From an uncultured Planctomycetaceae bacterium (GTDB taxonomy: Bacteria > Planctomycetota > Planctomycetia > Planctomycetales > Planctomycetaceae): DNA of 64,000 nucleotides. The notes under the pieces were generated by a model. It was not told the origin of the DNA, ran no database searches, and saw nothing but the letters and a program-made list of their open reading frames with translations. A program made the position numbers and the translations under genes. The stretch covers positions 672,001 to 736,000 of the forward strand of contig CAWFAK010000007.1 of NCBI GenBank assembly GCA_963813715.1. The letters are read 5' to 3'. Shown here piece by piece: positions 6,711 through 56,873 of the stretch; position 1 is the stretch's first letter; the number at the start of each line of letters is the position of its first letter.

Positions 6711-7044
6711 GCCCGGGCCCGATCAGAGACTTTTCAACTATACGCACAATTGAGAGGTGAAGCAACCGTCAGAATTGAGGTCGTTGAGTCGCGTGATCAT
6801 TCAACCTTAGACAATAACGTGGCTATTATAAACCTAATGCGACTGCCAGAAAATCGTAGACCAATCTTTGCTCAAGCGAGCTCCCTGCCAGAGACGGCTT
6901 TGAACGGACGCCTTTGTGATGGCTTGTTTGACTGAGGATGGCCGCATTTTGCCGCGGGGCGTAAAAGTTTGTTGAACGCGCCGACGCGTCTAGATTCAAG
7001 CAGACTTCCCTCTAACCAACGCTTCGGCGGCGGGAGGGCGACGG

Positions 7045-9346
7045 ATGACCGAATCCGATCGCGCCGAAACGGAATTCAACCGCAAGCGCGCCGAGGAGGA
7101 ATTGCGGCGGACGTGGGAGCTCCTCCGGGCCGTCGCCGACGAGGTGAGCGACGCGATTTTCGTCAAGGACCGAGGTGGCAAATACCTCGTGTTCAACAAG
7201 GCGGCCAGCCGTCTAACCGGTAAGTCGGCTGCGGAGGTGCTCGGGCGGGACGACACTGCGATCTTCGATCTCCACGACGCACGTCATGCAACGGGACCGC
7301 CGGGTCATGGAGGCCGGCGTCGCCGAGACGCAAGAGGAGGACCTGACTGCCGATGGCGTGGCCCGCACCTACCTGGCGACCAAGGCCCCCTATTACGACG
7401 AGCGTGGAAACGTCGGCGGCGTGATCGGTATCTCCCGCGACATCACCGACTGGAAGCGCGCCGAGGCGGTCCTGCGCGATCGGGAAGAACTCTACCGGTT
7501 ATTGACCGAAAAGGCGAACGACTTCATACGCCTGCACGATCTTACCGGCCGGAGCATCTATTGCAGCCCTTCGGTCGAGCGCCTCTACGGCCGTGTCCCA
7601 ATGACTCTCTTCGAGTTCCAACACCCTGACGATGCGGAGACCTGCCGGCGGTGGTGGGAGCACGTGTTGGCCGGAAGTGAGGAGCTATTGTACTGGCGTG
7701 TCCGTAGCAAGGATGGTACTTGGCAGTGGCTCAAAACGCAGGCGTCGATTGTGCCGTACCACGGGACGCCGCATGTGATGACTGTCTGCCACGATGTGAC
7801 CCTGCGGAAAGCGGCGCAAGACGCGTTAGGCCGAAGCGAGCGTCTCTTGCACCAGGTCTGAACGCAGTACCCGTGGGCGTTGTGGTCGTCGATCTGTCCG
7901 GGAACATCATCCTCGGCAACCCGGCCTCCCAGCGAGTCTGGGGGGGAATGATCACTGCCGGGTCCGAGCGTTACGCCAAGTCCAAGGGTTGGTGGCACGC
8001 CACGGGGAGGCCAATTGGGCCGGAAGAGTGGCCTTCGATGGCGGCCGTCACCACCGGGCAAGCCTCGGTCAAGCAGCTCATCGACATCGAGGCGTTCGAC
8101 GGCGTGCGGAAGGTCATCGAAAACTGGTCGGTCCCGATCCGGGCTGACGACGACAGCATCACCGGAGCGGTTGTGATCAACGAGGACGTCACCGACGTCT
8201 TGCGCCTCGAGGATCAGTTCCGGCAGGCCCAGAAGATGGAGGCGATCGGCCAGCTGGCCGGGGGCATGGCCCACGACTTCAACAACCTGCTCACGATCAT
8301 CAACGGTATCAGCGAATTAGTCCGAGCCAATTTCCGCCGGACGACCCGATCGCGAGACTGGCTCCTGGAGATCCGACAGGCCGGGCGAGCGAGCCGCGTC
8401 CCTGACCGGCCAACTCCTGGCATTCAGCCGCAAGCAAGTCGTGGAGCCGCAAGTGCTGAACCTAAACGCGTCGTCACCAACACGATGAAGATGCTGGGAC
8501 GGCTGATCGGAGAGGACGTCGAACTGAACACCGTGTTGGCCCCGAGCTGGGCGGGTGAGGGCCGAGCCGGGCCAGATCGAGCAAGTGATCTATCAACCTG
8601 GCCGTGAATGCGCGCGACGCCATGCCGCAGGGTGGCAAGCTGACCATCGAAACGGGCAACGCCGAACTGGATGAGACGTACACCGCAACCCACCCGGAGT
8701 CAGTTCGGGGCGGTATCGTCATGCTGGCAGTGAGCGACACAGGGTTGGCATGGAGAGGCGACCAAGGCCCACATGTTCGAGCCGTTCTTCACCACCAAAG
8801 GACCTGGCAAGGGCACGGGCCTCGGCCTGGCGACCGTCTACGGCATCGTCAAACAAGGCGCTGGTCATGTTGTCGTTTTCAGCGAACCGGGGAAGGGCAC
8901 TGCTTTCAAGATTTACCTTCCTCTCGTCGAAGAGGTCATTCCGTCGGGCAAGTCCGCGCGGACCTGCAAACCCCACCTCACGGCAACGAAACGATCCTCC
9001 TAGCAGAAGATGAACCAGCCGTTCGGGTGCTGGCTCGTCAGGTTTTGCAGATTTACGGCTACACGATCCTTGAAGCCGCCCAAGGTGAGATGTGCTTCAG
9101 ATTGCCGAGACATACAAGGGCACAATCCACCTGCTGGTGACGGACGTGGTCATGCCCGTAATGAGCGGTCGGCAGCTCGCCGAGTGCCTCGTTGCCATTC
9201 GACCCGGCATCAAGGTGTTGTACCTTTCGGGATACACCGATGACGCAGTGATTCGGCACGGGCTCTTGCAGGCGGAAACGGCCCTCCTTCAAAAGCCGTT
9301 CACCCCGAGTTCGCTTGCGTCAAAGGTGCGGGAAGTGCTGGATTAA
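7045..9346 (+). CDS. Hybrid multi-PAS sensor histidine kinase with C-terminal receiver (CckA-like architecture), frameshifted
   Basis: PAS segments, H-box '[23 protein letters not shown]', '[12 protein letters not shown]', '[18 protein letters not shown]', REC 'ILLAEDE', '[10 protein letters not shown]', 'LQKPF'. Stop TAA at 9344-9346. Confidence 0.92.
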
Positions 9347-12378: not shown

Positions 12379-12843
12379 GTGCGGATTCTCGACCGTGATT
12401 TGCGAGCCGCCGGCATTCCAAAGCGCGACGCACGCGGATGGGCGGTCGACGTTCACGCGCTTCGGCATTCCTTCGGAACGCTGCTCAGCAAAGAAGGTGT
12501 TGCACCGCGAACCGCTCAAGCCGCCATGCGTCATTCGACGATCGACCTGACAATGAACGTCTATACCGATCCGAAGTTATTGGACATTCAAGGCGCCCTC
12601 GACGCACTGCCCGCGCTGCCATTGGACCGGAAGCATCGGCGCACAAGTGTCACGTGCAAGGCGACAGGAACAGACGATTCCCAGCTTGCACCAACAAGCG
12701 GCGATTCGTGTCAAATTCGGTCCATCTGTGGCAAAGTGGCGACGGTGGCCGCTGATTGGACCGATCCGCGACGCGACGCCGGAACGTCTTGCGCCGTCAA
12801 AGAAAAGAACCCGCTGACAATTCGTTGTCAACGGGTCACTTAA
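12379..12843 (+). mobile_element. Tyrosine recombinase/integrase remnant (C-terminal catalytic part only) next to the tRNA-Ala 3' end
   Basis: 'VDVHALRHSFGTLL' (HxxR) and 'MRHSTIDLTMNVYT' (H and catalytic Y). No N-terminal integrase portion upstream. Confidence 0.85.
12798..12836 (-). terminator. Rho-independent terminator downstream of tRNA-Ala
   Basis: Minus strand ACCCGTTGACAA-CGAA-TTGTCAGCGGGT hairpin followed by TCTTTTCTTT. Confidence 0.75.
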
Positions 12844-18070: not shown

Positions 18071-19423
18071 ATGGTTTCTCGTCGTGATTGTTTGCGGATG
18101 GCGGCGGCGGGCGTGTCGTTTACCTCAGTCTCGGGTTGGTTCGGCTCGCTGGCGGCGGCGGCGCAAAAACATCCGGAGCGCAAACGCTCCTGCATCCTGC
18201 TCTGGATGCCCGGTGGCCCGAGTCAGCTCGATACCTGGGATCCCAAACCGGGACACGCCAACGGCGGCCCCTTCAAGGCGATCCAAACGTCGGCCCCCGG
18301 AGTGATGATCAGCGAACATCTGCCCGGCTTGGCCAAACAGATGAATCACGCCGCCGTCATTCGCTCCATGAGCACCAAGGAGGGGGACCACAATCGCGCC
18401 ACGTCGCTGATGCAGACCGGCTATCTGCCGCAGGGTCCGATTCGTTACCCCTGCTTCGGCTCGTTGTTCTCGAAGGAACTGGTCGACCCACATTCGGAGA
18501 TGCCCGGTTTCGTCAGCATCGCGCCCGCCACCTTCTTCCGCACGGGACCCGGCTTCCTAGGACCGCAATTTGCGCCGATGATTGTGGGCGGCGGCCCGGT
18601 TGCTCCGGCCAAGCCCGAAAAACCCGACTCGGATGCACCCCAAGAGATGGCTCCGGACGATTTTGGTCCGCCGCTCACGGTCGCCAACCTGGGGCGGCCG
18701 GCGGGCGTCACCTCGCGGCAAGCCGAGGCGAGGCTCGACATCCTCAAGCAACTCGACCGGCAATTCGCATCGGGCCGACCGGCTCCGCCGATTGCCAGCC
18801 ATCTGTCGGCCTACGAACGGGCCCTGCAGTTGATGAAGGCAAAAGGGAGCGAGGCCTTCGACCTCGATGAGGAACCGCAAAACCTCCGCGTGAAGTACGG
18901 CCGCAATCAGTTCGGCCAAGGCTGCCTGCTGGCTCGCCGGCTGGTCGAGCGGGGCGTGCCCTTCGTCGAAGTCTCGCTGTCCAACGGCGCCAACGCGCTC
19001 GGATGGGACACGCACGTCGAGAACTTCAAGGCCGTGCAATCGCTCTCCGAAACCCTCGACGCGGGCTTCGCGACCTTGATCGCCGACCTGGCCGATCGGG
19101 GCCTGCTCTCATCGACGCTGGTGGTCTGGATGGGCGAATTCGGCCGCACGCCCAAGATCAACGCCAACAACGGCCGCGATCACTTTCCGCTCGCCTGGTC
19201 GACCGTATTGATGGGGGGCGGCATCCGCGGCGGCCAGGCCATCGGCAAAACCGATCCGGACGGAATGCGCGTCGCCGCGCGCCCCGTCGCCGTCGGCGAC
19301 TTCCTCGCCACGATCTGCGCGAGTCTCGGCATCGACCCGACGAAACAAAACGTGTCCAACGTCGGACGTCCGATCCGCGTCATCGATCCCAAAGCCTCGC
19401 CGATCCGGGAAGCGCTCGCATGA
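18071..19423 (+). CDS. DUF1501 domain protein with Tat-like leader
   Basis: 'SRRDCLR' twin-Arg, 'CILLWMPGGPSQLDTWDPKP', 'GQGCLLARRLVERGV', 'WDTH', 'GEFGRTP', 'GRDH'. Confidence 0.95.
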   Translation: MVSRRDCLRMAAAGVSFTSVSGWFGSLAAAAQKHPERKRSCILLWMPGGPSQLDTWDPKPGHANGGPFKAIQTSAPGVMISEHLPGLAKQMNHAAVIRSMSTKEGDHNRATSLMQTGYLPQGPIRYPCFGSLFSKELVDPHSEMPGFVSIAPATFFRTGPGFLGPQFAPMIVGGGPVAPAKPEKPDSDAPQEMAPDDFGPPLTVANLGRPAGVTSRQAEARLDILKQLDRQFASGRPAPPIASHLSAYERALQLMKAKGSEAFDLDEEPQNLRVKYGRNQFGQGCLLARRLVERGVPFVEVSLSNGANALGWDTHVENFKAVQSLSETLDAGFATLIADLADRGLLSSTLVVWMGEFGRTPKINANNGRDHFPLAWSTVLMGGGIRGGQAIGKTDPDGMRVAARPVAVGDFLATICASLGIDPTKQNVSNVGRPIRVIDPKASPIREALA

Positions 19424-21297
19424 CCGATCCCGCGACAGGAAGTGGTCGGTGGCGTGTGGCCGCAGGCTTCGCTCTCGTATCGGCTCTGCTCGCTTGGACG
19501 GGTCTGCTTGGAGCCGCGTCGGCGGAAGGCCCGTCCCCGGCGGCGAACTCGACCGAGTCGCCAGCCGCCGCCAAGACTTCCGACACTCAGGCCGACACTA
19601 CGGATCTGATCTTCCTTAGTGCAGCGCGGCCGATCATCATCCGCTTGCACCTCTCAGTCGACGGACGGCGCATGGCGGACTTACGATCGGCCATCGCGCG
19701 GCGGATTTTCGACACGCTCGACGCGAACAAGAACGGCGTCTTGGACGGAAATGAGCTCAAGAACCTGCCCACGCCGCAGATGCTGGCAACCGCCGGCCGA
19801 GATCCGGAGGCGCCCGCGGAAACTGCGCCTGCGGAAACGACTGCCGCGGCCGCCCCGCTTGTCCCCAAGGACGGACGAGTCACCCCCGAAACGTGGACTC
19901 GCTTCTTGTTTCCGCCGACCGGTGGCCCGCTGACCCGCGTGACCTTCGCCGCGCCGCCTCCGGCGATGAGGGCCGTGGGAGGCGACATGGAGACGCCGAC
20001 CGGTGGCGACCTGGCAGCCCTGCTCTCGGCGATCGATGCCGACGGGGACGGCCGATTGAGCGCGGCCGAGCTGTCGCACGTCGATGGCCTGTTTCGCCTG
20101 CTCGATCTCAACGACGACGAACAGGTTTCGCGCTCGGAGTTTGTGGCGCCCATTGACGCTCGCTGGGCCTCCAACCCCACTCAGGGCGGTTCGACCGGCC
20201 CCTTACTCCCCCTCGAGCCAATTTCGCACAGAAGCGAAAACCAGGCCGGCGACAACGCGCGCGGCGATAATTCGGCCCTCATTCGTCGGCTGCTCCAGAC
20301 GTTCGCACCTAAGATCGCGGATCCCAAATCTGTGAAGCCGGAAGGCAAGCCCAAGGCACCCGCAAAACCAATGGGAATTCCGTTGGAAGTCTTCGCCCCT
20401 TCCGACGACGCGGCCCGCTTCGACAAAAACGCCGACGGGCTGCTCGACGAGCACGAGATTGAGGCGTGGCTTGCCGATCCGCGGCCGCAAGCCGAGTTGG
20501 CCGTCGACCTGGTGATGACGTCGCTCAAGGAGTCGCAAGTTCGACCGTTGAAGGTGCTGCCGATGGCCGCCGCAGCCGGACTGGCGATCGAGACGCCGTC
20601 GCCCGGGCGCGTTTTGCTTCGCGTCGGACCCGCGCCGCTCGACTTGCAGGCGGCCGACGCCCCCCGTCGCGCGGCCGCGCGGACGAGCCGGTATCGCTCA
20701 ATGTTCAAGCGGGCCGATCAGAACAAGAACAACTATCTGGAAACCTCCGAGATTCCTTTCCTGGGCCAGGGGCTCGATTCGCGGGATTTCGAGGCCATGG
20801 ACCGCGACCACAACGGCATGGTGTTTGAAGACGAGTGGATCGCCTACCTGCGGCTGCGGGACGCGCTGGCGGAGGGGCGGCTGTCGCTCACGATTTCGGT
20901 CGAGTCGGTCGACCCGCTCACGCAGTTCGACGCCAACCGCGACGGCCGGCTCAACCGGGCCGAGTTTGCCGCCGCCCTGTCAGCCGTCGCCGCCTGGGAC
21001 CGCAATCACGACGGCTTCGTCACGCCGGACGAAATTCCCCGCACGCTCCTGGGCACGTTTCATATCGGCCCGACGCGATCCGTTTCCCTGCGCGGTCCTC
21101 GGTATTCGCGAATGAAAGCGTCGTCAAAACTGCAGCCCGCCAGCGACGCGCCTGTCTGGTTCCAAAGGATGGATCGCAATCAGGACGGCGAAGTTTCGCT
21201 GCGCGAGTTTCTCGGCCCCATTTCCGTCTTCCGCCGCCTCGACACCAACGGCGACGGACGGCTCGATGTTCACGAGGCGCAGGCAGCCCAAAAGTAG
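19420..21297 (+). CDS. Secreted multi-EF-hand calcium-binding protein
   Basis: ATG overlaps the DUF1501 stop; N-terminal signal; many DxNxDG loops (DANKNGVLDGNE, DADGDGRLSAAE, DRDHNG, DANRDGRLNRAE, DRNHDG, DRNQDGEVS, DTNGDG). Confidence 0.88.
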   Translation: MTDPATGSGRWRVAAGFALVSALLAWTGLLGAASAEGPSPAANSTESPAAAKTSDTQADTTDLIFLSAARPIIIRLHLSVDGRRMADLRSAIARRIFDTLDANKNGVLDGNELKNLPTPQMLATAGRDPEAPAETAPAETTAAAAPLVPKDGRVTPETWTRFLFPPTGGPLTRVTFAAPPPAMRAVGGDMETPTGGDLAALLSAIDADGDGRLSAAELSHVDGLFRLLDLNDDEQVSRSEFVAPIDARWASNPTQGGSTGPLLPLEPISHRSENQAGDNARGDNSALIRRLLQTFAPKIADPKSVKPEGKPKAPAKPMGIPLEVFAPSDDAARFDKNADGLLDEHEIEAWLADPRPQAELAVDLVMTSLKESQVRPLKVLPMAAAAGLAIETPSPGRVLLRVGPAPLDLQAADAPRRAAARTSRYRSMFKRADQNKNNYLETSEIPFLGQGLDSRDFEAMDRDHNGMVFEDEWIAYLRLRDALAEGRLSLTISVESVDPLTQFDANRDGRLNRAEFAAALSAVAAWDRNHDGFVTPDEIPRTLLGTFHIGPTRSVSLRGPRYSRMKASSKLQPASDAPVWFQRMDRNQDGEVSLREFLGPISVFRRLDTNGDGRLDVHEAQAAQK

Positions 21298-46334: not shown

Positions 46335-47960
46335 TCACTTGGAGATTCGGAACAAGTCGTCCGAGGGCGTGTCGTTGAAGTCGACGTACATTCGCGTAGT
46401 CTTCGCCCGATTTCCCGAGACGTCACGGAGAATGACCGTTGGGTACCAGAAGCCGCGCGGCGACTGGTCGAAATCCTTGAATCCAACGTCGGGAGGCTTA
46501 GACGCAGCGGCGATTTGCTCCGCACCTGCCGACGGGTCGCGATAGACGATCTTGACCGCGACACTGCCCATGCTGGGATTCAGCCAGTATGTCGCGTCCA
46601 GTGCAATTGGCTTCCGAATGGTTGGATCCAAAGAAACGTCCACCTTGATTAATTCCTGATTGCCAACCGTTTGATGGTTAACCTCAAAGTGGCGGTCTAG
46701 TGCCCTGAAAGGGAAGGTTGGACGGCAACACAGCTCAGGAACGTTAAGAGTCTGCCCCAGGAAGTCCGCCTGAGAATCCTCTTTCACCGGAAAGATCTGA
46801 AGAGGTCCGTCGCTGGAGACCTTCTCTCCCCATGTAAAAACGCCGATGGTGTGACCATCGCAAATTGCGACGGGGCTAAATCGAAATTGTTTCTTGTTCG
46901 CATGCCAGGCCTTCAGCGCCTCGTTTTGGTCCACGGGCAAAACGAATTGCGCGTCTGCGGGCTTGACGTCGTCTATGCGCCACTTATTACCCCGGCGCAG
47001 CACCCGTTTCGGATCGCACCGACTCAACGGCCGAGGGGTATCGAATCTCGCGGTGACGGACAACGCTGAATAGTCGTCGAAGCCCTCCCGGCCTTCTTGC
47101 AGCGTTTGAGCAATGTCCGGCAATTCACCCGATTCATCGACGTCCCTCGCTTGGACCCCGACTGGAATCCCCAGCGACGATCGGTCCGCCAAGCCCTTGA
47201 TTGGGTAGTCGAAGTAGCAGGTCGTCGTGTGCGACGCGGCTTCAGTGATCGCAAGAGAATACGGCAGTGAAGACCGCTTATCGATCGTGAGAACGAGCGT
47301 GATTGCCCCACGGTCGGCGGGCCGCACGACAATCTGATATTCGTCGCAGGGTTTTCCGTCGATCATTTGGCTTTTCAGACTCCATCGCTCGATCCGCTCG
47401 TCCGGCAACAGCGACGGAGCAGAGGGAGATCGCCGAAATACCGCGGCTAGGTTTGATACGGACGAGAGTTCCTGCGTCAGTCGCGCGTTCCCTGGCCGAA
47501 CGGCACGGTAAAGGATTTTGCGCTTCTCGTCATAACGTAAGAACACATTGTTCGTGTAATCGAAGAGCAAAGCGGTCGTCGATAGCCTGCCTCCGATCAC
47601 GTCCAGACCCGGCGATACCCACAACTCGCCTTTTTCGACGTTGTCTCGCACGATGCGCGCGTGAATGCACGCTTGCGCACGGGCCCTCCGGATCGCAGAC
47701 GCCCAGGCCGGTTCGCTGTTGAAAAACCAAACGGTCCCCAAGACCACTGCCGATAGGCCAACCGCAAAGACTGATGCGAGCATGATTCGATGTTTCGAGC
47801 GCATGCGGAGGGGCTGGACAGCCACGGCCACGCTTAGCAGTCGACTCCGCAAATCTGCGGCGTACTCCGCCGACGGGCCGGACCGCACTCGGCTTTCGGA
47901 AAGCGCCGTCTTCAGCACTTCCATTTCCTCCGCGTCAAATTCGTCGGGCCGAGTGCTCAT
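46335..47960 (-). CDS. Putative anti-sigma factor: cytoplasmic N-terminus, one TM, LolA-like periplasmic region
   Basis: Start overlaps the ECF sigma stop. TM 'IMLASVFAVGLSAVVLGTVWFF'; 'IDGKPCDEYQI', 'FDYP', 'GFWYPTVI'. The fold call is inference. Confidence 0.65.
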   Translation of the reverse strand: MSTRPDEFDAEEMEVLKTALSESRVRSGPSAEYAADLRSRLLSVAVAVQPLRMRSKHRIMLASVFAVGLSAVVLGTVWFFNSEPAWASAIRRARAQACIHARIVRDNVEKGELWVSPGLDVIGGRLSTTALLFDYTNNVFLRYDEKRKILYRAVRPGNARLTQELSSVSNLAAVFRRSPSAPSLLPDERIERWSLKSQMIDGKPCDEYQIVVRPADRGAITLVLTIDKRSSLPYSLAITEAASHTTTCYFDYPIKGLADRSSLGIPVGVQARDVDESGELPDIAQTLQEGREGFDDYSALSVTARFDTPRPLSRCDPKRVLRRGNKWRIDDVKPADAQFVLPVDQNEALKAWHANKKQFRFSPVAICDGHTIGVFTWGEKVSSDGPLQIFPVKEDSQADFLGQTLNVPELCCRPTFPFRALDRHFEVNHQTVGNQELIKVDVSLDPTIRKPIALDATYWLNPSMGSVAVKIVYRDPSAGAEQIAAASKPPDVGFKDFDQSPRGFWYPTVILRDVSGNRAKTTRMYVDFNDTPSDDLFRISK

Positions 47961-48544
47961 AGGCGTGCACCCCCCTGTTGAGGTGCTGGTGCAAAATAAG
48001 GCCCCAGCAACGTCCGCAAGCGCGTCCGAGCGCGCGATAGCGACGACTCGACGGCTTTAGCCGTTGTTTTCATCGCCGTCGCTATCTCCTGAACCGAACG
48101 ACCATCGACATATTTCTGTCGCAGGACCACCTGGTGAGATTGTGGAATGGCCGTGAACGCCGCCCGCACGAGTTGCAATCGCTCGACACGCTCCATCACC
48201 TCTTGCGGAAGAAGGAGGGCGTCGTCAGCCAGTTCGATCGACTCCGCGTTCTCCGATACAAAGGCGCTCGACAAGCGGCGAAAATGCTGCGCCACTTGCA
48301 ATCTGGCAATGCCAAACAGCCAATCGCGCAACTCGCCTCTCGCAGGATCGAACCCTTTAATGCTGGAAATCGCCTGCAGCCAGACTTCCTGGTTCAGGTC
48401 CTCGCATAACGTCCTGTCGCCGTCCACGAGATGGCTGACGAAGGCGTAGATTTCGTTCAGATGCGCGTCATACAACGCCCTCCACGCTGCTCGATCGCGA
48501 CGTGCGAGCAATTGCAGAAACGCGTCATGCGACGAAGCTGGCAT
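47957..48544 (-). CDS. ECF RNA polymerase sigma factor
   Basis: 'AWRALYDAH', 'EDLNQEVWLQA', 'FDPARGELRDWLFGIAR', 'SVQEIATAMKTTAKAVESSLSRARTRLR'. Confidence 0.93.
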   Translation of the reverse strand: MPASSHDAFLQLLARRDRAAWRALYDAHLNEIYAFVSHLVDGDRTLCEDLNQEVWLQAISSIKGFDPARGELRDWLFGIARLQVAQHFRRLSSAFVSENAESIELADDALLLPQEVMERVERLQLVRAAFTAIPQSHQVVLRQKYVDGRSVQEIATAMKTTAKAVESSLSRARTRLRTLLGPYFAPAPQQGGARL

Positions 48545-48740
48545 TTGGCTGTCGTACTCGGCTGCTGCTGATCGGTCGACCAGACTCTATTTGCGCGAGA
48601 GCGCGGAATCCTTCGCACAATTTACGAAAAAGACGAAAGTCGGTCGCATCCCGGCTTATCCGTGCAAACCGGCTCCGTCAGGAGACTTCCCACAGGTAGC
48701 TAGGCGTACATGCGGGTAAACACTCACCCGAGGTCTTCTT

Positions 48741-50052
48741 CTAGCTGGGCGCCGGCGATCGTCGGCGACGCCACAAAAGTCCAGTCCCCAGGACGACCAG
48801 TGCCCCGGCATTAAGCAACAGCAAGTGGCGCCAGATGCCACGGCCACCTACTCCGGCAGGAAAGGGCTGTATTTCTCCATTGATAATCGGATTGGCCCGC
48901 GCGATTGCCTCGTCGAGCAAGTGTTCGCCGTGCGGAACGAAATAGGACCTATTGAGAATCAGATCCTGGACGTTAGTGCCGGGGGGGAAGTCGAGCTCGA
49001 AAACGTCATCCGGAACATTGTTGACGTTGATGTTCTCGATCGTAACGGTGTGCACCTCCGTCAGCATCCCCTGCGTATTCGCGGGCTCCAGCGATCCTGC
49101 AAAATCGAGCCGATAACACCGGTGCGGCAGCCAGATGGTGTCACCATATTGGCGCAAATCCTTGTTGGCATAGACGAACGCAAGCACGGGCATGCTGCTG
49201 AGGTTCCGCATTTGAAACCACAGCCGACGCCGCATCGCGAAGCCATTCTCCGTATCGATCCAGATGGTGTCGGCCCCGTTCGTGACCACGTGACACGGAA
49301 AACCGTCGACCTCCTGGAGAGTCGGTAGCACTCGATAGACGGATGGCAAGCTCAGTGCGGTAGGCACGTACCAGGCCGACTCACGTTGTCGAGCTGCGTT
49401 GGCCCCCGTCGGAATTGAAATTGAGTCGAAGTACCACACCAGCCGTGAATCCACCGCGTCAAGTTTCGCTGGATGGATGTGGCCAAGCGAACGGGTTGGC
49501 TCGAAGGCTTTCATTTGCGTGCCATTGAAGGCGTAATCGAACTCCGGCAATGGCCTCGTTCGCCGCTTACTCGCTGAGTTCTCTGCAGTCTTAATCGCAA
49601 ATCGGCCGGGCGTGGTCTCGCGAATATGGGTGAACCGCTTCTCGCCCTTCATCGCGACGCGCGCTTTCGAACGAGAAGTTAGCGGGGACCGCATGCTTTT
49701 GTCGCTTTTGCGAAATCACACGAGCCGTTTCAACCTGCCTCTGTAATGAATATTGGAACGACACTTCGATACTCTCGACGCGGCCCGCCAAGCCATCTGG
49801 CCGTCGTAGAGTTCCTTTAGGGAATGCGTGGCTTTTCTGTTCGCTTGCCGCACGTTTTGCCATTCGAGGTGATCCAGCCCTCGTTGGACTTCTTCGTAAC
49901 TACCGACTTGTCCGGAAAGGCCGACGTATCGCGTCGGCGACTTCCAATCTTGCGCGTGCGGTGACAAACCCGTCCAACATGACCACCAGGACCCCCATGC
50001 CGCCAAGCTTGAGAATCCCCAACCATGCCAATCGTCTCGCCTCGACTCCCAT
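48741..50052 (-). CDS. Exported protein with a LolA/LppX-like beta region and C-terminal TM anchor with basic tail; frameshifted 5' part
   Basis: GGAGG SD then ATG at 50052 with a hydrophobic N-terminus; 'QEVDGFPCHVV', 'IWIDTENGFAMRR', 'IWLPHRC', 'VPDDVFELDFPPGTNVQD', end 'LLLLNAGALVVLGTGLLWRRRR'. Confidence 0.6.
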
Positions 50053-50158
50053 CGGCCCGCACTCCTCCAGGTTTCCGATTCGCTTTTTGGCGCACTGACA
50101 GACTTGTTCGCCTTCAACAGCCCGGTTGCAGTATTTCAGCGGACTCGCGAGGGCTTGG

Positions 50159-51373
50159 CTATTTCCGGTCGCGAGACGGTCTCATCCGCTCGTCGGAATT
50201 GCGCGCGACCTCTGCCAGAACGGTCGGGTGATCCGTCAACAAGGCCCGTTGGAGCACGCAGGCGGCGTGCGAATAAGCACAGTAGTCCCTTTGGATAGTC
50301 GTCGAGTCCGATCGCTTGAGCGCATCGATCAAAAACTGGAGGGCGTGCGAAACACAAACGCTCGATGGCCTCAAAGAAACGGGCACGATCTGGATCCACT
50401 CGAGCTGATGTCCGGTAATCCGCACCAGGTCCTCGCCGCGAATCGTCTCGGCGGCTCGGTTGTCCGTGACAGTCGAAACACGGTTCGCCCAAAGAGGACT
50501 CCAGGCGCCGTTGGGCAGCTGCGAGCTTTCGAGCAAGCGACTGGATCGCGACAAGTAGACCTCGCATCGTCGCCGGAGATCCGCCGAGATACTGCGGGAG
50601 GCGTGTCGCAATAGGAAGGCCAGCGTCAATTGCTTGTGAGTTCCTCCACAGGAACCGCTGTCGAGCGGCAGCGCAAGAATGGCCTCAGCCATCGATTCAT
50701 AGGAACAGGTCTCACCGAAGCGATTTTCCCACTGCGGTTCGTCCGGCAAATATCCGCAGAAGGCGACCAGCGACCAACAGACTTCCTGGCTCGCGTCAAA
50801 ACTGCGGCGCGACGCATCGAGGAGTTCGCCGACCGTAAACGAGCCGAAATTGCTCTCAACGGATAAGCCCAAAGGGACACCAATCTCCGCACACGTAGCG
50901 AGGAATTGGTCGACATGATGTTCGTACTCCCAGTGGTCCTGGACATTGGGGGCGGTGCGCTGCCTCACATCCCAGCCATAGGGGGAACGGAAGAACAAAG
51001 GCGGCGACCTGGGAAACGTTCGACGAAAGTCTGCCTGACCGAGCACGCGACCCACTTCGCGCTGCAATTCGAGGTTGGCTGGAAAGGCACCCGCCAGACC
51101 CTCGAAGCGCCAGCGGTGAAAGTAATCCGACGCTCGTAGCGGCTGAGTCACGACGTATTTGGTAATAGCCTCCGCAGCCGAGACCTTCACCTCGGCGGCG
51201 AAAATGGGATTCGGCGAGGGTGGAGCGATTTGCCCAAGTTCTGTCGGGCTCTTGGGAACTCCGGAAGGACCGAGCCACATTTTGACCCCTAGAGTCGCGG
51301 CGACTCCCACGACAGCCATAGCGACAACTAAAGATGCCACCCGGTTAGTGGTCCTCAACCTGTCGGAGATCAC
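50159..51373 (-). CDS. Membrane-anchored helical protein with His/Cys motifs (possible alpha/alpha-toroid enzyme)
   Basis: GTG at 51373 overlaps the upstream stop, GGAGG SD; N-terminal TM; 'HHVDQFL', 'SCGGTH', 'QLPNGAW', 'TGHQLEW', 'YCAYSHA'. Confidence 0.7.
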   Translation of the reverse strand: MISDRLRTTNRVASLVVAMAVVGVAATLGVKMWLGPSGVPKSPTELGQIAPPSPNPIFAAEVKVSAAEAITKYVVTQPLRASDYFHRWRFEGLAGAFPANLELQREVGRVLGQADFRRTFPRSPPLFFRSPYGWDVRQRTAPNVQDHWEYEHHVDQFLATCAEIGVPLGLSVESNFGSFTVGELLDASRRSFDASQEVCWSLVAFCGYLPDEPQWENRFGETCSYESMAEAILALPLDSGSCGGTHKQLTLAFLLRHASRSISADLRRRCEVYLSRSSRLLESSQLPNGAWSPLWANRVSTVTDNRAAETIRGEDLVRITGHQLEWIQIVPVSLRPSSVCVSHALQFLIDALKRSDSTTIQRDYCAYSHAACVLQRALLTDHPTVLAEVARNSDERMRPSRDRK

Positions 51374-52220
51374 GCGCGGTGACCTCCGGGCGCCGGATCC
51401 GCGGGCAGAATGGACACGCGGATTGGGTATGTTAAGACCTCGCCGTCGACCGTAACCCGGACCGGCAACAGAACGTCCTGCCGCTTTTGAGCGACGTTGT
51501 CCTGCGGATTGACTCCCAGCGTGAACGAGCACTCTCGTCGCACATAATTTGACGTTTCGACGGACGGCCCAACGCGGATGTCCTGGACGACGAGTACGGA
51601 TTCCAGTCCGGTCCCGCCCAGTGGCACATCAACCTTTGGCTCGCTCGAAGAGGCCTTGAGAAACAGGGTGCCGACGATCGACGCGGTTCGCGCGACCTTG
51701 GCACGGCCGCCGATCATGTACGTGTAGTTTGGAAAATTGGCGCCGAGTTCGATGGCGTGGACACTGAGCGCTTCCGCCCAGGACCCGCCCTCTGCCTCGA
51801 CGTAAACCCGTGCATCCGCCGGGCCGGCGTGGCGCGGCCTGGACCGCATCATCATATGCACACTGGTCGATGCGCCCGCGACGAGCGTCTCCTGTTCCAA
51901 GCGCGCTTCGGTGCACCGACAAGTCGGCGATCCGAGATGCAACCGAACCGTCGAGTTACCCTGATTTTCGATGCGGAAAAGCCCCTCGGCAGCGCCGTCA
52001 CGCGGCAACACACCAAGATCGGCTTCGGTATTCCACGCAACCAGCCGGAGTGCATCTGGCGATGGTGTTCTCGCGACGATTCTGTCAGCGGACGACGCCG
52101 ATCGTTGAACGGAGCGGCCGACATTCGCCGGCAGAGCCGAGCATCCCAATGTCAGACAGCTGACTAACAGACTGGCGAGCGATTGGCGCGGCGCCGCAAA
52201 AACGCAGGTCGATGGCAAAG
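51370..52220 (-). CDS. DUF1573 (Ig-like) domain protein; start uncertain, possibly the frameshifted C-terminus of the C39 gene
   Basis: 'DLGVL...FRIENQGNSTVRL..GSPTCRCTEA..LVAGASTSV', a DUF1573-like CxC pattern. Preceded by lipobox-like 'CLTLGC'. Confidence 0.65.
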
Positions 52221-52853
52221 CGCCCAACGTGCGAGCGGAAAGCCGCCAATCGACACCGACGCTGCGATGACACACCACAGAGCGACTTCCAACCTGCGAT
52301 GCGAAGACATCTTGCGCGATTCGGGCAAGATCAGATAACCACTCCAACAGCGGACGAATTGACTGCGAGACACCGTTTCGATCGAAGCGGCATAGTTCGG
52401 TTCGATGTAGCGCACTGAACGGTCATCAATCTGCAGCACGAGCAGGAAGTGCCCGATGGCATTGTTGGTTTCGCGACGGGGCAAGACGTGCGCGATTAGT
52501 GGAGTGGCGAAATGATCGAGATCCCGCGGTTTCGCTCGCAAAACCGTTGCCGAAACCCCCAGTGCCGCTAATCCCTCTTGTAGGCCAAGCAAGGAACTCC
52601 CGCCTTTTTCGATCGGAATAGCGGCAACGGCGTCGTCGTAGGTGATTTCGCTACCAAGAAGGCGTGCCAGCATATAACCGCAGGCCACGCCGCAGCTTTG
52701 GGCTTCGCGCCAATGGTGATTATGCGCTGCCCCCCGTGCATCGACCTGACGAGAACCGCCAGTACTCGCCTCTCCGTGAGTTCGAATGAAGGTGATTGCA
52801 CTTGCGACGATTGCAATCAGAGCCCAGCGGCGATGGAAGGTCGTAGAAAGCAT
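52164..52853 (-). CDS. Stand-alone exported C39-family cysteine peptidase (no ABC transporter domain)
   Basis: Signal/TM 'RRWALIAIVASAI', 'QSCGVAC' (Gln and catalytic Cys), 'GSSLLGL', 'PLIAHV', 'GHFLLV' (His), 'IEP', 'FVRCWSGYLI', C-terminal TM. Confidence 0.85.
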   Translation of the reverse strand: MLSTTFHRRWALIAIVASAITFIRTHGEASTGGSRQVDARGAAHNHHWREAQSCGVACGYMLARLLGSEITYDDAVAAIPIEKGGSSLLGLQEGLAALGVSATVLRAKPRDLDHFATPLIAHVLPRRETNNAIGHFLLVLQIDDRSVRYIEPNYAASIETVSRSQFVRCWSGYLILPESRKMSSHRRLEVALWCVIAASVSIGGFPLARWALCHRPAFLRRRANRSPVC

Positions 52854-52960
52854 GAGAGCGGCTCGGCGGCTAGGCAGACAGTATTTCTGAGGTCGGCTCT
52901 GGGCAATTCAATAACGCCGTTACCAACCAGCAAGCATGCCACGCGATATGGGGGACCTTC

Positions 52961-53407
52961 TCAAGTCCCACTGCATCCCTGTTGGTCGAGATCAAAAGGC
53001 GCCGGACCGCACTCGACACTTGAGGAATTCAGGCATTGGCAGCAAGGCATGATCACTCCCGTAACCGAGCAAAACGTTTCGGTGCAAGTTGCTTGCGTCG
53101 CCGAGTCACACGCGTCTTGCACCAACGCGCCAGTAAATGTCCCGGATCCGCCATAGCTCGAGGTGGCACCGCACGCATATGAACATAATCCGTCGCAGTC
53201 CGAAGTCGCAGATGTGCAGGTGTCAGTCGCAGAATCCGTGCAAGCGCTATTCGACGTCGATTGATACGAGCCACACTGCCCTCCGCGAATGCTCGCCGCG
53301 GTCGTGGCTGAAACCTCGACGACGTCCCCCGGCAATCGATCCGCTGACGGGAGAATGGCAAGGGCCGCAGATGCGAGGGCAAAGGCAAAGACTGAGACGC
53401 GAGACAT
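52961..53407 (-). CDS. Secreted Cys-rich precursor peptide with double-glycine leader (candidate RiPP/bacteriocin-like prepro-peptide)
   Basis: Strong SD (GAGGAG) before the ATG; signal peptide; 'EVSATTAASIRGG' then a 105-aa core with 14 Cys. Confidence 0.8.
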   Translation of the reverse strand: MSRVSVFAFALASAALAILPSADRLPGDVVEVSATTAASIRGGQCGSYQSTSNSACTDSATDTCTSATSDCDGLCSYACGATSSYGGSGTFTGALVQDACDSATQATCTETFCSVTGVIMPCCQCLNSSSVECGPAPFDLDQQGCSGT

Positions 53408-53919
53408 TTTTCTACTCCTCCAGAAACCGAAGTTCCTTACGGATCGTCAAATCTTGGAGCACGTAGGCAGTCCACTGACGCGGTAGCCACCGTTCAGCCG
53501 AGCGCAATGGCACGACGTTCGACGGTCGAGGCGTCAACGAAATCTCGGTTGGATCGGAACTCAGCTAATGATCCAGGCGTAGATCGCCCGGAGCATTGGT
53601 GATTCCTATTCCTGCGCAAAGGCCGCGCACGCTTTGCCGGCGCCTTGGACAAGGCTCGGCGGCACGAAGATGCGCTCATCCGAAAGAAGCAGCCCGCGGC
53701 GACGACCAACCAGGGTCGTTCGCGCCATTTCCGTCCAGCCATTGGTCCGGAACTGGGAACATCCTGATGCGATGATCTCGGAATGTCAAACAAAAACGAC
53801 AAAAAAATCGGGGAAGCTGGAAAGTTATCGAGCAATCATTTTCCACCCACCATCACGAGCGACGACCAACACTCCACTGGATTCCACGAGATGCCAATTG
53901 TTCGGAGAGCGTCTCCAAT

Positions 53920-54189
53920 CTACTGATCACCCGGATGAGTTGACCGCGCAACAACATCGACGATGTCGCCGATGGTGCGCAAACCGATCGCCTGTTCGTC
54001 CGAGATCTGCATCCGCCACCGGTTCTCCAGCTCGAACCGCAACTCGAGAAGATCCAAAGACGCCAGGCCAACGTCCTCGATGATGTGTGATCCTTCCGTG
54101 AGATCAGTGAGCTTGGCTCGACCGTTGGAGGCGAGAGCTAACGCCGGCTTCAGTTGCTCGATGATCCGACATCGTTCGTCTTCGCCCAT
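53920..54189 (-). CDS. Acyl carrier protein
   Basis: 'IIEDVGLASLDLLELRFELENRWRMQISDEQAIGLRTIGDIVDVV'. The phosphopantetheine Ser lies in ASL, a variant of DSL. Confidence 0.85.
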   Translation of the reverse strand: MGEDERCRIIEQLKPALALASNGRAKLTDLTEGSHIIEDVGLASLDLLELRFELENRWRMQISDEQAIGLRTIGDIVDVVARSTHPGDQ

Positions 54190-54343
54190 TGATGCAAATC
54201 CAGTCACAGATTAAGTTCCTGCCCGCGCGGTCGGGAACTCGTTCGAATGAGCCCGGTAGTATTCAAATCCTACCCCGCGCATAATTCAACGACCTCGCCT
54301 CGCTTGAAACTCGCCCCATCGTGGGACACGGCCACTCCTCGCC

Positions 54344-55768
54344 ATGCCGTTCAATTCCCTGGTTTTCCTCCTGTTCTTCCTGATCGTGGCACTCGTGCAC
54401 TCCCTGCCGCTGCCGGTGATCGTCCGCAAGCTTAACTTACTGATCGCGAGCTACGTGTTCTACGCGGCCTGGGACGTGCGCTATCCCCTGCTGTTGGCCT
54501 TCTCCACGCTGGTGAACTTTGGTGCCGCCGCTCTCATTCAAAATTGCGAAGGAAAGACTCAGACACGGCGCACGGTGCTGTGGATCAGCGTGCTTTTAAA
54601 CTTCGGTCTGCTGGCCTGCTTTAAGTATGGCAATGAGTTTCTCTCGGCCTGGGGACTGCTGGCAGACCGACTGCGAATCGCTGAACCTCCGCAGGTTACG
54701 ATTCTGCTGCCAATCGGACTGTCGTTCTTCACGTTTCAGGCCATGTCCTACACGATTGACGTCTATCGCCGCCAATTCCGACCGACGTCGTTGTTGGACC
54801 TGGCGATCTTTGGCTCGTTCTTCCCCGTGCTCCTGGCCGGGCCGATTTTGCGAGCCGGGCAGTTCATTCCGCAGTGCACCCCGCCGCGACGGGCCACGGG
54901 TCGTGAGTTCTGCTGGGGACTCTCGCTGCTCACCCTGGGCCTGTTCTTGAAGGTCACGCTAGCCGATCATTTGCTTGCGCCGATCGCACAACAGGTGTAC
55001 GACCTCAGTCTGCGACCCGACACGCTCAGCTCCTGGACAGGCACACTGGTCTTCGCGGCTCAGGACTATTGCGACTTCGCGGGCTATTCGACGTGTGCGA
55101 TGGGCATTGGCCTATGCCTTGGCTTCGTGCTGCCGGCCAACTTCCGCTCCCCATTGGCATCGATCGGCTTTCGCGATGTATGGCAGCGCTGGCATATCAC
55201 GCTCGTCGTCTGGATGCGCGACTATGTCTTCAATCCTCTAGGCGGCGTCTTCAAAGGATATGCCCGCGCCGCACTCAATGTGATAATCGTGATGCTCCTC
55301 ATCGGAGTTTGGCACGGCGCGACGGCCACCTTTTTGATCTTTGGCTTTCTGCACGGATCGTTCTTGATCGGCGAGACATTGCTGCAACGTACGCGGCTGC
55401 GTCGACTGCCTGTCTGGGCAACGCCGTTCGGGAAGTTCGTCCTCTGGGCGGTCACTATCATGCTGTGCCTGGTCGCGTTCGTCTTCTATCGGGCGGCCAA
55501 CCTCGAGCAGGCTCGTTGGATATTGGCGTCCATGGCCGGCTTCCCCAGCGGTGTCGGGAGCTTCGGCCTGACGGATCACGATCTGTTGATCGGACTCGTC
55601 ACTGTCGAGTGTCTGATCGTCGCCCACTGGGTCGTGCGCAACCAGAATCTCGAAACGGCCGTCGCACGCATCCCTTGGTGGAGCGTTTCGTTCGGACTCG
55701 CGGCGATGTTGGTGGCCATCACACTGAGTTCGGGCGAATCGCAGACCTTTTTGTATTTTCAGTTCTGA
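54344..55768 (+). CDS. MBOAT family O-acyltransferase (AlgI/DltB-like)
   Basis: 'FNSLVFL', 'LPIGLSFFTFQAMSYTIDVYR', 'FFPVLLAGPI', 'YCDFAGYS', 'WQRWHITL..WMRDY', 'GVWHGA', end 'FLYFQF'. Confidence 0.95.
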   Translation: MPFNSLVFLLFFLIVALVHSLPLPVIVRKLNLLIASYVFYAAWDVRYPLLLAFSTLVNFGAAALIQNCEGKTQTRRTVLWISVLLNFGLLACFKYGNEFLSAWGLLADRLRIAEPPQVTILLPIGLSFFTFQAMSYTIDVYRRQFRPTSLLDLAIFGSFFPVLLAGPILRAGQFIPQCTPPRRATGREFCWGLSLLTLGLFLKVTLADHLLAPIAQQVYDLSLRPDTLSSWTGTLVFAAQDYCDFAGYSTCAMGIGLCLGFVLPANFRSPLASIGFRDVWQRWHITLVVWMRDYVFNPLGGVFKGYARAALNVIIVMLLIGVWHGATATFLIFGFLHGSFLIGETLLQRTRLRRLPVWATPFGKFVLWAVTIMLCLVAFVFYRAANLEQARWILASMAGFPSGVGSFGLTDHDLLIGLVTVECLIVAHWVVRNQNLETAVARIPWWSVSFGLAAMLVAITLSSGESQTFLYFQF

Positions 55769-55810
55769 GAGTTTTCCGCTGCTCCAAACTGTCATGACCT
55801 CAACGGACTC

Positions 55811-56873
55811 ATGAGTTCATCCGCAACGACGCCCGGGACAACTCCGACCACGCCGTCCGGCACGGCGCGCGAGGACACGTCGCGACGGTTGCCGGAAGCG
55901 CGGGTCTACCTCTTGGGTCTCGTACTGTTCGTCGGGATGATCGGTGCGCTGGAGGTATACTGGCGGGGACGAGCGTTCGAACCCAACGTTCCGGATTCCC
56001 CGGACCTGTGGGCCTATCACTGGTCCCGAGTCGTCGGCAACGATCCCAATCTGATCGTCGCCATCGGCACGTCGCGCATTCGCACCGCTGTGCGGCCGGA
56101 CGTGATTCAGGAGCGTCTCCCTTCCCAACGACTAATTCAACTGGGAGTGAACGGGCCCTCCGGATCGCTCGGTCTACTGGCCGAAATCAGTCGCATTCCG
56201 CATTTCCGCGGTCTCGTTCTCTGCGACTTGCTTCCGCCCCTGATGGCACCCGAGCAAGGGCGTGAACAGGTCGCCATGGCTCGTAGGCCGAATACCACGG
56301 CACACACTTTGAATACCTACTTGCGTTCGTTGCTGTGTGACCGACTGGTCGTCCTCAACTCGGCATTATCCGTTCGCAATTGGTTTGCACAGCGCGACTC
56401 GTTTCGTCCGGAGAGTGTCGGTCCGCGCCTGCGGGTCCACGCGGATCGGACTCTCGAGATTAGTTATCCCACGGACGAAGCGCTCGAAGACGATTCGTGA
56501 GAACCGTTTTCGCGACTACGCCGGCCGCTACTCAAAGGCCCGTCGTTACAAGAACATGGACGAATTCCGGGAAGCGATCCGCGACGTGGCCGACTCGGTG
56601 GCCCGCATAAAACAAAACGGCGGCAAGGTCGTGTTCTTGCGGTTACCAGCAGCCGGCGCCCGACTGCAACTCGAAGAAGCGACCTATCCTTCTGCGCTCT
56701 ATTTCGGGGTGTTGGCAGAAACAACTTCCGCGCCCTGGATCGACTTTCGCGAGCTCTCGCACGAAGACGATCTCGACTGCCCCGATGAGTCACATCTATC
56801 CGCGGACTCCGCCCCGGTCTTTACAAGTCGCCTCGTCGAAAGGCTGCGCCGCGGCTCGCTCCTGGGCCAATAG
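55811..56873 (+). CDS. Membrane-anchored SGNH-like acyltransferase partner (AlgJ/DltD-like), frameshift near 56497
   Basis: N-terminal TM, 'IGTSRI' block I, 'QLGVNG', C-terminal 'DESHL' (DxxH). Directly follows the MBOAT gene. Confidence 0.7.

Follow-up and report, generated by a model that had tools for sequence, protein, structure and literature searches.

A conserved planctomycete locus that probably processes double-glycine leaders outside the cytoplasm

Removal of a double-glycine (GG) leader by a C39 peptidase is the textbook cytoplasmic step in the export of bacteriocins and of peptides made on ribosomes and modified after translation (RiPPs). The locus at 48741-53407, minus strand, of a 64,000-nucleotide stretch of DNA from an uncultured Planctomycetaceae bacterium (the whole stretch is called the window below) raises the question of whether the same leader-protease pair can work on the other side of the membrane. 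An earlier reading of the letters alone, here called the original prediction, had described the locus as five genes, for a precursor, an exported C39 peptidase, a DUF1573 protein, a His/Cys helical protein (designated HC405 in this report) and a LolA-like protein with a C-terminal anchor, and had proposed that they form a RiPP-like pathway relocated to the periplasm or cell surface that matches no RiPP class recognised in that reading. We find that the locus is real and conserved, and that it belongs to the known C39/GG-leader theme. It probably encodes a small Cys-rich protein that is exported by ordinary secretion and has a bacteriocin-style leader removed outside the cytoplasm, and we consider it likely that the locus represents an extracytoplasmic GG-leader processing module of the Planctomycetia.

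The N-terminus of the precursor is signal-like (residues 1-22): a basic n-region is followed by a 16-residue hydrophobic stretch, by ...EVSATTAASIRGG, and then by QCG and a 105-residue core. The GG leader ends ...AASIRGG at residue 43, and the core contains 14 Cys; all 14, together with R41-G42-G43, were invariant in an alignment of five orthologous precursors. We observed comparable open reading frames (ORFs) at related loci. Among 20 loci that had been fetched solely because they contain a C39 and LolA-like gene pair, 16 encode on the same strand a Cys-rich ORF of ~100-155 aa with a hydrophobic N-terminus and a GG-type motif, usually between the HC405 and C39 genes; two have a partial or variant form and two have none. 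Such ORFs were also present at 4 of 6 loci collected earlier from relatives.

We aligned 24 of the cluster-linked ORFs, the window precursor and 23 others, on the presumed cut. With the sites picked by a motif at positions -1, -2 and -4, G occupies -2 and L, I, V or F occupies -4 in all 24, and G, A or S occupies -1 in 22 of them. At positions that played no part in the picking, V, L or I is found at -12 in 22 of 23 leaders, A at -7 in 18 of 23 and E at -8 in 12 of 23. According to PMC10885120, a canonical GG leader combines E at -8 with G at -2, a G, A or S at -1, and hydrophobic side chains at three places (-4, -7 and -12). The leaders of these loci follow this classical double-glycine pattern, here behind a putative Sec-type segment. 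Ten of the aligned ORFs have Cys at +2. The cores, which are rich in Ser/Thr and Cys, are 50-105 residues long with 6-14 Cys (mostly 6 or 8) and are thus small proteins rather than peptides; from one locus to another their sequences vary greatly, and at two of the loci two precursors are encoded. The window precursor itself had no usable match in the Atlas, where its model has a pLDDT (predicted local distance difference test) of 0.31. A regular-expression scan of the genome of origin for more such hybrid leaders missed the window's own precursor and is uninformative.

Of 401 genomes sampled from the class, 106 had a match to a profile of the LolA-like protein and 141 to one of the C39 domain. 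Among the 150 matches listed for each profile, the partner family lay within 10 kb of at least 49 LolA-like and at least 46 C39 matches, in at least 31 genomes; with a further 26 and 147 matches beyond those listed, these counts are lower bounds. A LolA-like gene accompanies 23 of the 25 best C39 matches within the same distance. By these counts and those of the pair-chosen loci below, the gene arrangement is far beyond chance. When the 20 pair-chosen loci were scanned with hidden Markov models (HMMs) made from our own alignments, HC405 was present in 18; it was missing from L096 and from L088, a locus truncated at the end of its contig. Five of the 20, and also L063-L066, encode a PMT-like GT-C glycosyltransferase, and at the six earlier loci Pfam confirms C39, PMT_2/PMT, DUF1573 and a DUF1559 pseudopilin. 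Several of these families are also fused to one another: C39 to HC405 in L065, C39 to the LolA-like protein in L080 and L081, and C39 to DUF1573 in the distant locus L066 (6883-8292). Among the best 150 HC405 representatives, four of the five longest have an N-terminal C39 domain and the fifth a GT2 glycosyltransferase. Within the genus, 4 of 11 genomes share synteny over a 12-kb block that runs from the response regulator gene to a 229-aa ORF and takes in unrelated flanking genes; such same-genus synteny proves little. The neighbourhood analysis that had been suggested as a check of the original prediction thus came out in its favour, with C39, LolA-like and HC405 genes recurring together across many genera, beside GG-leader Cys-rich ORFs and as fusions; the view of these genes as a functional unit, which their failure to co-occur in other genomes was to have refuted, stands.

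Elsewhere in the phylum, beyond this class, the C39 matches mostly belong to ORFs of at least 700 aa that look like peptidase-containing ATP-binding cassette (ABC) transporters (PCATs). None of 20 loci with short C39 genes fetched from outside the class, many of them on short contigs, contained HC405 by our HMMs, and only three of these loci, all from one genome (G262), look related to the window locus. Cys-rich ORFs of other kinds were also seen near C39 genes. Two genomes of another family carry homologous 14-Cys ORFs (L068, 5392-5715; L070, 5982-6320), which belong to a different Cys-rich family and lie ~2 kb upstream of long C39-bearing ORFs, and a same-genus genome without the main cluster has a 73-aa ORF with 12 Cys (L071, 10050-10271, minus strand) upstream of a short C39 gene on the same strand (8035-8409).

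The C39 and DUF1573 identities given in the original prediction both exceed their Pfam cut-offs (Peptidase_C39, PF03412, residues 50-180, E 2.7e-18, 66.5 bits against 22; DUF1573, PF07610, E 1e-7, 32.3 bits against 26.1). The C39 part comprises a signal-like hydrophobic N-terminus, a domain with Cys and His, a transmembrane (TM) segment and an Arg-rich tail. Its SCGVAC and GHF sequences, which we take to be the catalytic Cys and His motifs of the family, align with those of relatives, and the Cys and His are kept in one C39 copy per distant locus. Many loci hold two copies, of which one has neither Cys nor His; four such paralogous copies from distant loci are included in Table 1. The inactive copy may be a pseudo-peptidase that holds the substrate. 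Such copies also recall the inactive C39-like domains of some type 1 secretion ABC transporters. As for identity with a PCAT or AMS (ABC transporter maturation and secretion) protein, TIGR01193, which has a cut-off of 523.85, scored 29.7 bits in a match confined to the peptidase part, and no ABC domains were found in the protein. We also predicted the complex of the C39 domain with precursor residues 22-72. It scored 0.45, where the best of 3 controls scored 0.00; the runs agreed in at least 64% of contacts, with a partner pLDDT of at least 49. The mark used in this prediction was reached by 116 of 157 solved complexes and by 2 of 215 mismatched pairs, and scores of 0.60 or less that reached it came from 18 of the 157 solved complexes and from both of the passing mismatched pairs.

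Basic residues precede the N-terminal hydrophobic segments of these proteins, and Arg-rich tails follow the C-terminal TM segments of the C39 and LolA-like proteins. This distribution of charge, as seen in the alignments, suggests that the catalytic domains lie outside the cytoplasm, a location with which the lack of a detectable ABC exporter also fits. As had been noted originally, ABC, LanB/LanM, YcaO and radical-SAM genes were not found (which is not to say that they are absent) by Pfam among 57 window ORFs, namely 10 from 46335 to 56500 scanned at E <= 0.1 and 47 scanned at E <= 1e-6; insertions and deletions (indels) in the assembly may have broken other ORFs.

Neither of the 2 partner proteins, nor the precursor, matched a Pfam or NCBIfam family. 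For HC405, which has an N-terminal membrane anchor, the AlphaFold2 (AF2) model (pLDDT 82) predicts an (alpha/alpha)6 toroid, in agreement with its first description as a His/Cys helical protein. H86, H153, C242-x-G-x-H246, Q285, H322-x-x-E325 and H369 were invariant in two alignments of 25 and 16 sequences. The best structural match in VIA-align was the GH105 glycoside hydrolase 4xuv_B (Z 18.1, root-mean-square deviation 3.6, 265 residues aligned), followed by the class II terpene cyclases 8zg0_A (Z 17.0, deviation 3.3, 244 aligned) and 1gsz_A (Z 16.7), with GH88 enzymes, epimerases and thioester domains within 3 Z units; the predicted (alpha/alpha)6 fold is clear, and the terpene-cyclase and glycoside-hydrolase matches tie. 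Foldseek found nothing in the PDB at E <= 0.001 with the same model, and a profile search of PDB sequences gave one 32-residue match, to a repeat of the squalene-hopene cyclase 8pak_A (E 0.0016). Of 1.84 billion representatives (50% identity), 2374 matched the family at E <= 0.001. It has no Pfam model, and in the Atlas HC405 matched only unnamed Planctomycetota clusters.

A second HC405 subfamily (L019-L026 and L028) is unlinked to C39, and membership in the HC405 family alone therefore does not mark the module. In L019-L024 the gene of this subfamily directly follows a co-oriented gene of 528-597 aa without a Pfam family (in L021, 8711-9928 after 7125-8711). A GT2 glycosyltransferase gene follows this pair in L023, and one family representative (P0222) is a GT2-HC405 fusion; in L021, a secreted-looking protein of 218 aa with 18 Cys, including CC and CCC runs, is encoded just upstream of the pair (6307-6963, plus strand).

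The LolA-like protein has an N-terminal signal-like segment and a C-terminal TM segment with an Arg-rich tail. An AF2 model of an ortholog (L015), of low confidence (pLDDT 56.6), gave 7 Foldseek matches at E <= 0.001, the best being 3buu_B (E 4.9e-7), 3bk5, LolA3 9tp6 and LolB 9tpm. The "LolA-like" assignment accordingly holds at the level of a predicted LolA-superfamily fold, and the apparent C-terminal membrane anchor argues against a role as a soluble shuttle. Close homologues of this protein and of HC405 are labelled 'Planctomycetaceae bacterium' in their source records.

On these observations we propose the following sequence of events. The precursor would be inserted or exported through its signal-like N-terminal segment in a Sec-dependent manner, and its Cys-rich core would fold in the periplasm with formation of disulfides. 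The outward-facing, anchored C39-DUF1573 protein would then cut after Gly43 of ...E-x-x-x-x-A-A-S-I-R-G-G and free the 105-residue core, a site that is suggested by the motif, by the C39 family and by the weak complex prediction. HC405 and the LolA-fold protein, both presumably membrane-anchored and periplasmic, may act on the substrate or escort it; their linkage to C39 and fusions with it were observed directly. Proteins of the GT-C fold act on the outer face of the membrane, and at the many related loci that encode a PMT-like GT-C protein, which this one does not, Ser/Thr-rich cores might also be glycosylated in the periplasm. The released protein could be bacteriocin-like, a signal, or metal-binding.

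Several points weigh against an extracytoplasmic GG-leader processing module as just described. The precursor profile had no credible match outside the genus among 401 genomes of the phylum at E <= 0.01: it matched 6, namely the genome of origin and five others weakly (E between 9e-4 and 8e-3), with internal stops present in four of these five, and homology of the cores across loci is thus not established. The agreement at -1, -2 and -4 is partly circular, since the GG sites were chosen by motif, and -7 is usually Ala rather than the Leu of classical leaders. In the C39 alignment the oxyanion Gln position is not conserved, and where many relatives have Asp as the third, acidic residue of the catalytic set, the window has Glu. 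The predicted complex is weak support, and its pass may reflect likeness only, because C39-leader complexes have already been solved. Topology was read by eye from the positive-inside rule. The genome of origin has one such cluster, with two GT-C genes unlinked to it. An RNA-Seq library (X3) yielded contigs for every one of the 30 bins of 48700-53450, and one of 1575 bases spans DUF1573, C39 and the precursor, but DNA carry-over is possible and such contigs cannot show transcription or co-transcription. More generally, cleavage, export route, topology and disulfides are all inferred here.

The original prediction went further than processing, to an extracytoplasmic RiPP-like pathway. In the fullest form of such a reading, a signal-anchored precursor would be modified by HC405, as an enzyme family not recognised before and with a His/Cys/Glu site, given sugars in many species by polyprenol-dependent GT-C and escorted by the LolA-fold protein, with release by C39 last, all on the outer face and as a new RiPP-like class; this we think improbable, and real chemical modification by HC405, by GT-C or by both is likewise doubtful. 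As an explanation of the locus it would have a metal-dependent HC405 modify Cys (or Ser/Thr) of the tethered precursor before C39 releases it, with sugars added by GT-C where present, so that the pathway would be the periplasmic counterpart of glycocin or lanthipeptide maturation. The (alpha/alpha)6 superfold is common to Zn-dependent thiol-alkylating enzymes such as LanC and the beta subunit of protein prenyltransferase, and the invariant His, Cys and Glu of the HC405 toroid, its linkage in 18 of 20 loci and fusion to C39, the neighbouring GT-C genes, the one GT2-HC405 fusion, and cores that are rich in Ser/Thr and Cys all speak for this explanation. However, the 50 structural matches listed for HC405 are glycoside hydrolases, terpene cyclases, epimerases and thioester domains, with no LanC or prenyltransferase among them in spite of the shared general superfold, and its binding of metal is presumed. 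Also, no RiPP-class enzyme (LanB/LanM/LanC, YcaO, radical SAM, MNIO, ATP-grasp or SunS-type glycosyltransferase) was found with Pfam or NCBIfam in the operon or among the 57 window ORFs, and a length of 50-105 residues with an even Cys count is in keeping with cores that are simply disulfide-rich proteins. We judge a true RiPP pathway to be unlikely: the extracytoplasmic location proposed for it fits the charges and the missing exporter, but no modification chemistry came to light, and the RiPP part is not established.

Less probable still is that the products are periplasmic stress or metal-buffering peptides of the bufferin type, under control of an extracytoplasmic function (ECF) sigma factor, with C39 merely removing a pro-segment. 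Bufferins are Cys-rich, Sec-exported periplasmic RiPPs with neighbouring sigma/anti-sigma control (PMC11626156), and an ECF sigma factor gene with that of a probable anti-sigma factor lies directly downstream in the window and at 4 orthologous loci. This pair is, however, outside the conserved core: in 15 distant loci (L062-L076; tblastn, E <= 0.01; L077-L096 were left out) the sole ECF match was in L072, a locus without C39 and HC405. No MNIO/DUF692 or DUF2063 gene was found in the scan of 57 window ORFs, and the diversity of the cores is easier to reconcile with a part in conflict or signalling than with housekeeping as a metal buffer. Classical C39 domains do work in the cytoplasm (PMC10885120), and the block that is syntenic within the genus takes in unrelated flanks, so that one might suppose either conventional cytoplasmic cleavage with an unlinked transporter or mere syntenic neighbours without shared function. 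We find this very hard to accept, because linkage and fusions recur across many genera and families, because hydrophobic N-termini and the Arg-rich tails after C-terminal TM segments put C39 outside, and because the precursors have signal-like N-termini and no ABC gene was found among the 57 window ORFs.

The extracytoplasmic processing module can be compared with several described systems. With PCAT/AMS exporters (ComA, CvaB, LahT and PCAT1; PMC10885120) it shares a papain-type C39 domain with Cys and His, the leader pattern, diverse cores, and loci with several precursors. In contrast to theirs, its C39 is not fused to an ABC transporter, none having been found nearby, and is anchored and apparently periplasm-facing; its leader is preceded by a Sec-type hydrophobic segment; its cores have 50-105 residues and 6-14 Cys; and it has an (alpha/alpha)6 toroid and a LolA-fold protein as extra conserved partners. 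For a periplasmic C39 peptidase as such there is precedent. FapD of the Pseudomonas Fap amyloid system acts in the periplasm on an unknown target (PMC5557850), and for NapP, with the barrel NapF, of the Neisseria nap island periplasmic action is the proposed model (PMC11798529). Both resemble the module in having a stand-alone C39 with an export signal, proposed GG-motif substrates and no ABC exporter. They differ from it in that their peptidase goes together with an outer-membrane barrel of the FapF type and with peptides that are amyloid or cationic, and the substrates of FapD have no canonical GG leader, whereas the module has a canonical leader, Cys-rich cores, a TM-anchored C39 that is often duplicated as an inactive copy, and HC405, LolA-fold and GT-C partners; no search was aimed at a FapF-like barrel.

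Bufferins (PMC11626156) are alike in having a ribosomal product, a Sec-signal precursor and an adjacent sigma/anti-sigma pair; they depend on cytoplasmic modification by MNIO enzymes and a signal peptidase cut, and none of their modifying enzymes was seen here. TMcins (PMC13712780) are alike in being processed in or at the membrane and in having extracytoplasmic disulfides; they are Gram-positive and use an S2P intramembrane protease and an ABC transporter, neither of which was seen here. Glycocins such as sublancin and glycocin F (PMC12457901) have a GG leader, a disulfide-rich core and a clustered glycosyltransferase, the last in only part of the loci here; their glycosylation is cytoplasmic and of the GT2 type, with PCAT export, whereas the enzymes linked to the module are PMT-like GT-C and glycosylation by them is conjectural. 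The part of PMC3482391 drawn on here mentions only toxin-type C39 domains. Periplasmic C39 peptidases, Sec-signal RiPP precursors and membrane-localised maturation are thus already in print, none of them with this gene set, and in full-text literature, exclusive of the supplements of the papers compared, we found no description of the planctomycete module.

The leader-protease pair has apparently been moved behind Sec, with anchored periplasmic partners of its own. If so, the module would provide a route to disulfide-rich, perhaps glycosylated, secreted mini-proteins without a dedicated transporter, and would give a first functional context to HC405, a large unannotated family, and to anchored LolA-fold proteins. 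Standard rules for mining genomes that start from PCATs would probably overlook clusters of this kind, as judged from the TIGR01193 score far below its cut-off.

At the places originally reported there are indeed ORFs of one orientation that are separated by short gaps or overlap, but they represent four genes rather than five. In comparisons of the window with contigs of three public runs (at least 99% alike; two DNA libraries and one RNA library, X3), we observed four small indel sites (Table 1), each of which coincides with a frame break of a conserved gene; with the four indels applied, the locus encodes a 148-aa precursor, a 494-aa C39-DUF1573 protein, HC405 and a 437-aa LolA-like protein. 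In three of the four same-genus loci (L016, L017 and L018) one ORF, 486-504 aa long, encodes both C39 and DUF1573, whereas in the window the two parts overlap in different frames; a fused ortholog aligned to the window by tblastn switches frame between 52227 and 52161, and the ORF start at 52347 for the DUF1573 part is an artefact of the frame break near 52185. The LolA-like ORF is 434-448 aa in orthologs. In the window three of the four indel sites (49665, 49778 and 49951/49953) break it; its conserved N-terminal part is found further upstream without a change of frame, separated by an in-frame TGA (49716-49718), and a conserved stretch of 38 residues sits in an alternative frame (E 3e-14 against an ortholog); from the ortholog alignment, this match and the corrected ORF, the gene extends to about 50055 and not 49694. 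The frameshifts are most likely assembly errors. The host genome is in 18 contigs with a marker completeness of 82.6%, a combination that would fit an indel-rich long-read assembly, and other parts of it are probably rich in indels as well. In the scan at E <= 1e-6, no Pfam family was assigned to many of the window ORFs.

Table 1. Positions of the genes of the locus, their neighbours, the indel sites and other features (window coordinates unless a locus is named)
Feature	Position	Strand	Details and basis
Precursor	52961..53407	-	148 aa; ORF list, five-ortholog alignment
C39 peptidase part	52164..52853	-	Separate ORF in this assembly; PF03412, alignment with relatives
DUF1573 (Ig-like/PapD-like) part, same gene as C39	51370..52347	-	PF07610
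HC405	50159..51373	-	404 aa, GTG start; alignments, AF2 model
LolA-fold protein	48741..50055 (start coordinate approximate)	-	Ortholog alignment, Foldseek
ORFs as listed in the assembly	52961-53407, 52164-52853, 51370-52347, 50159-51373/51532, 48741-49694	-	
Indel	49665		One base left out in public contigs
Indel	49778		G put in behind, public contigs
Indel	49951 or 49953		Two bases put in, public contigs
Indel	52185		C put in behind, contigs of X1, X2 and X3
ECF sigma factor, neighbour	47957..48544	-	197 nt downstream; Sigma70_r2/r4, TIGR02937
Single-pass membrane protein, neighbour	46335..47960	-	541 aa; overlaps ECF gene by 4 nt
ACP-like ORF	53920-54207	-	NCBIfam ACP models, E 2e-11, below cut-offs
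DltB-like MBOAT, divergent	54344-55768	+	
ORF without family	55811-56500	+	229 aa
Phage integrase family fragment	12379-12840	+	
EF-hand protein	19003-21294	+	764 aa
C39-like copy without catalytic Cys/His, L062	2210-2839		
C39-like copy without catalytic Cys/His, L063	6298-6897		
C39-like copy without catalytic Cys/His, L064	8555-9148		
C39-like copy without catalytic Cys/His, L065	9191-9784		

The GTG start of HC405 overlaps the upstream stop by 4 nt. Downstream of the LolA-like gene are the ECF gene and the gene for a single-pass membrane protein of 541 aa, together with genes for a histidine kinase and a response regulator. The ECF gene is syntenic only in 4 same-genus loci; the membrane protein, also syntenic there, exceeds the cut-off of no Pfam family, and its designation as a probable anti-sigma factor comes from its position alone. 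Among the 10 ORFs from 46335 to 56500, the Pfam families over cut-off are Peptidase_C39, DUF1573, Sigma70_r2, r4_2 and MBOAT. Upstream of the precursor are an ORF resembling acyl carrier protein (ACP), directly adjacent, and then the divergent MBOAT gene and the 229-aa ORF. The latter two are syntenic in same-genus loci, and the ACP ORF was not found there by tblastn; the three may form an extracytoplasmic acylation system. A consensus scan found no promoter-like site and, where 6.8 were expected, 12 terminator-like sites; it was not used.

The organism is widespread in soil metagenomes: the stretch is held at half or more of its words by 13 runs, from soil, rhizosphere and peat, and six RNA libraries, which may contain DNA, hold parts of it. 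Elsewhere the window contains planctomycete hallmark families, DUF1549/DUF1553 and DUF1559 with its N-terminal methylation motif, and also a protein of many EF-hand motifs and a fragment whose match to the phage integrase family is confined to that family's C-terminal end.

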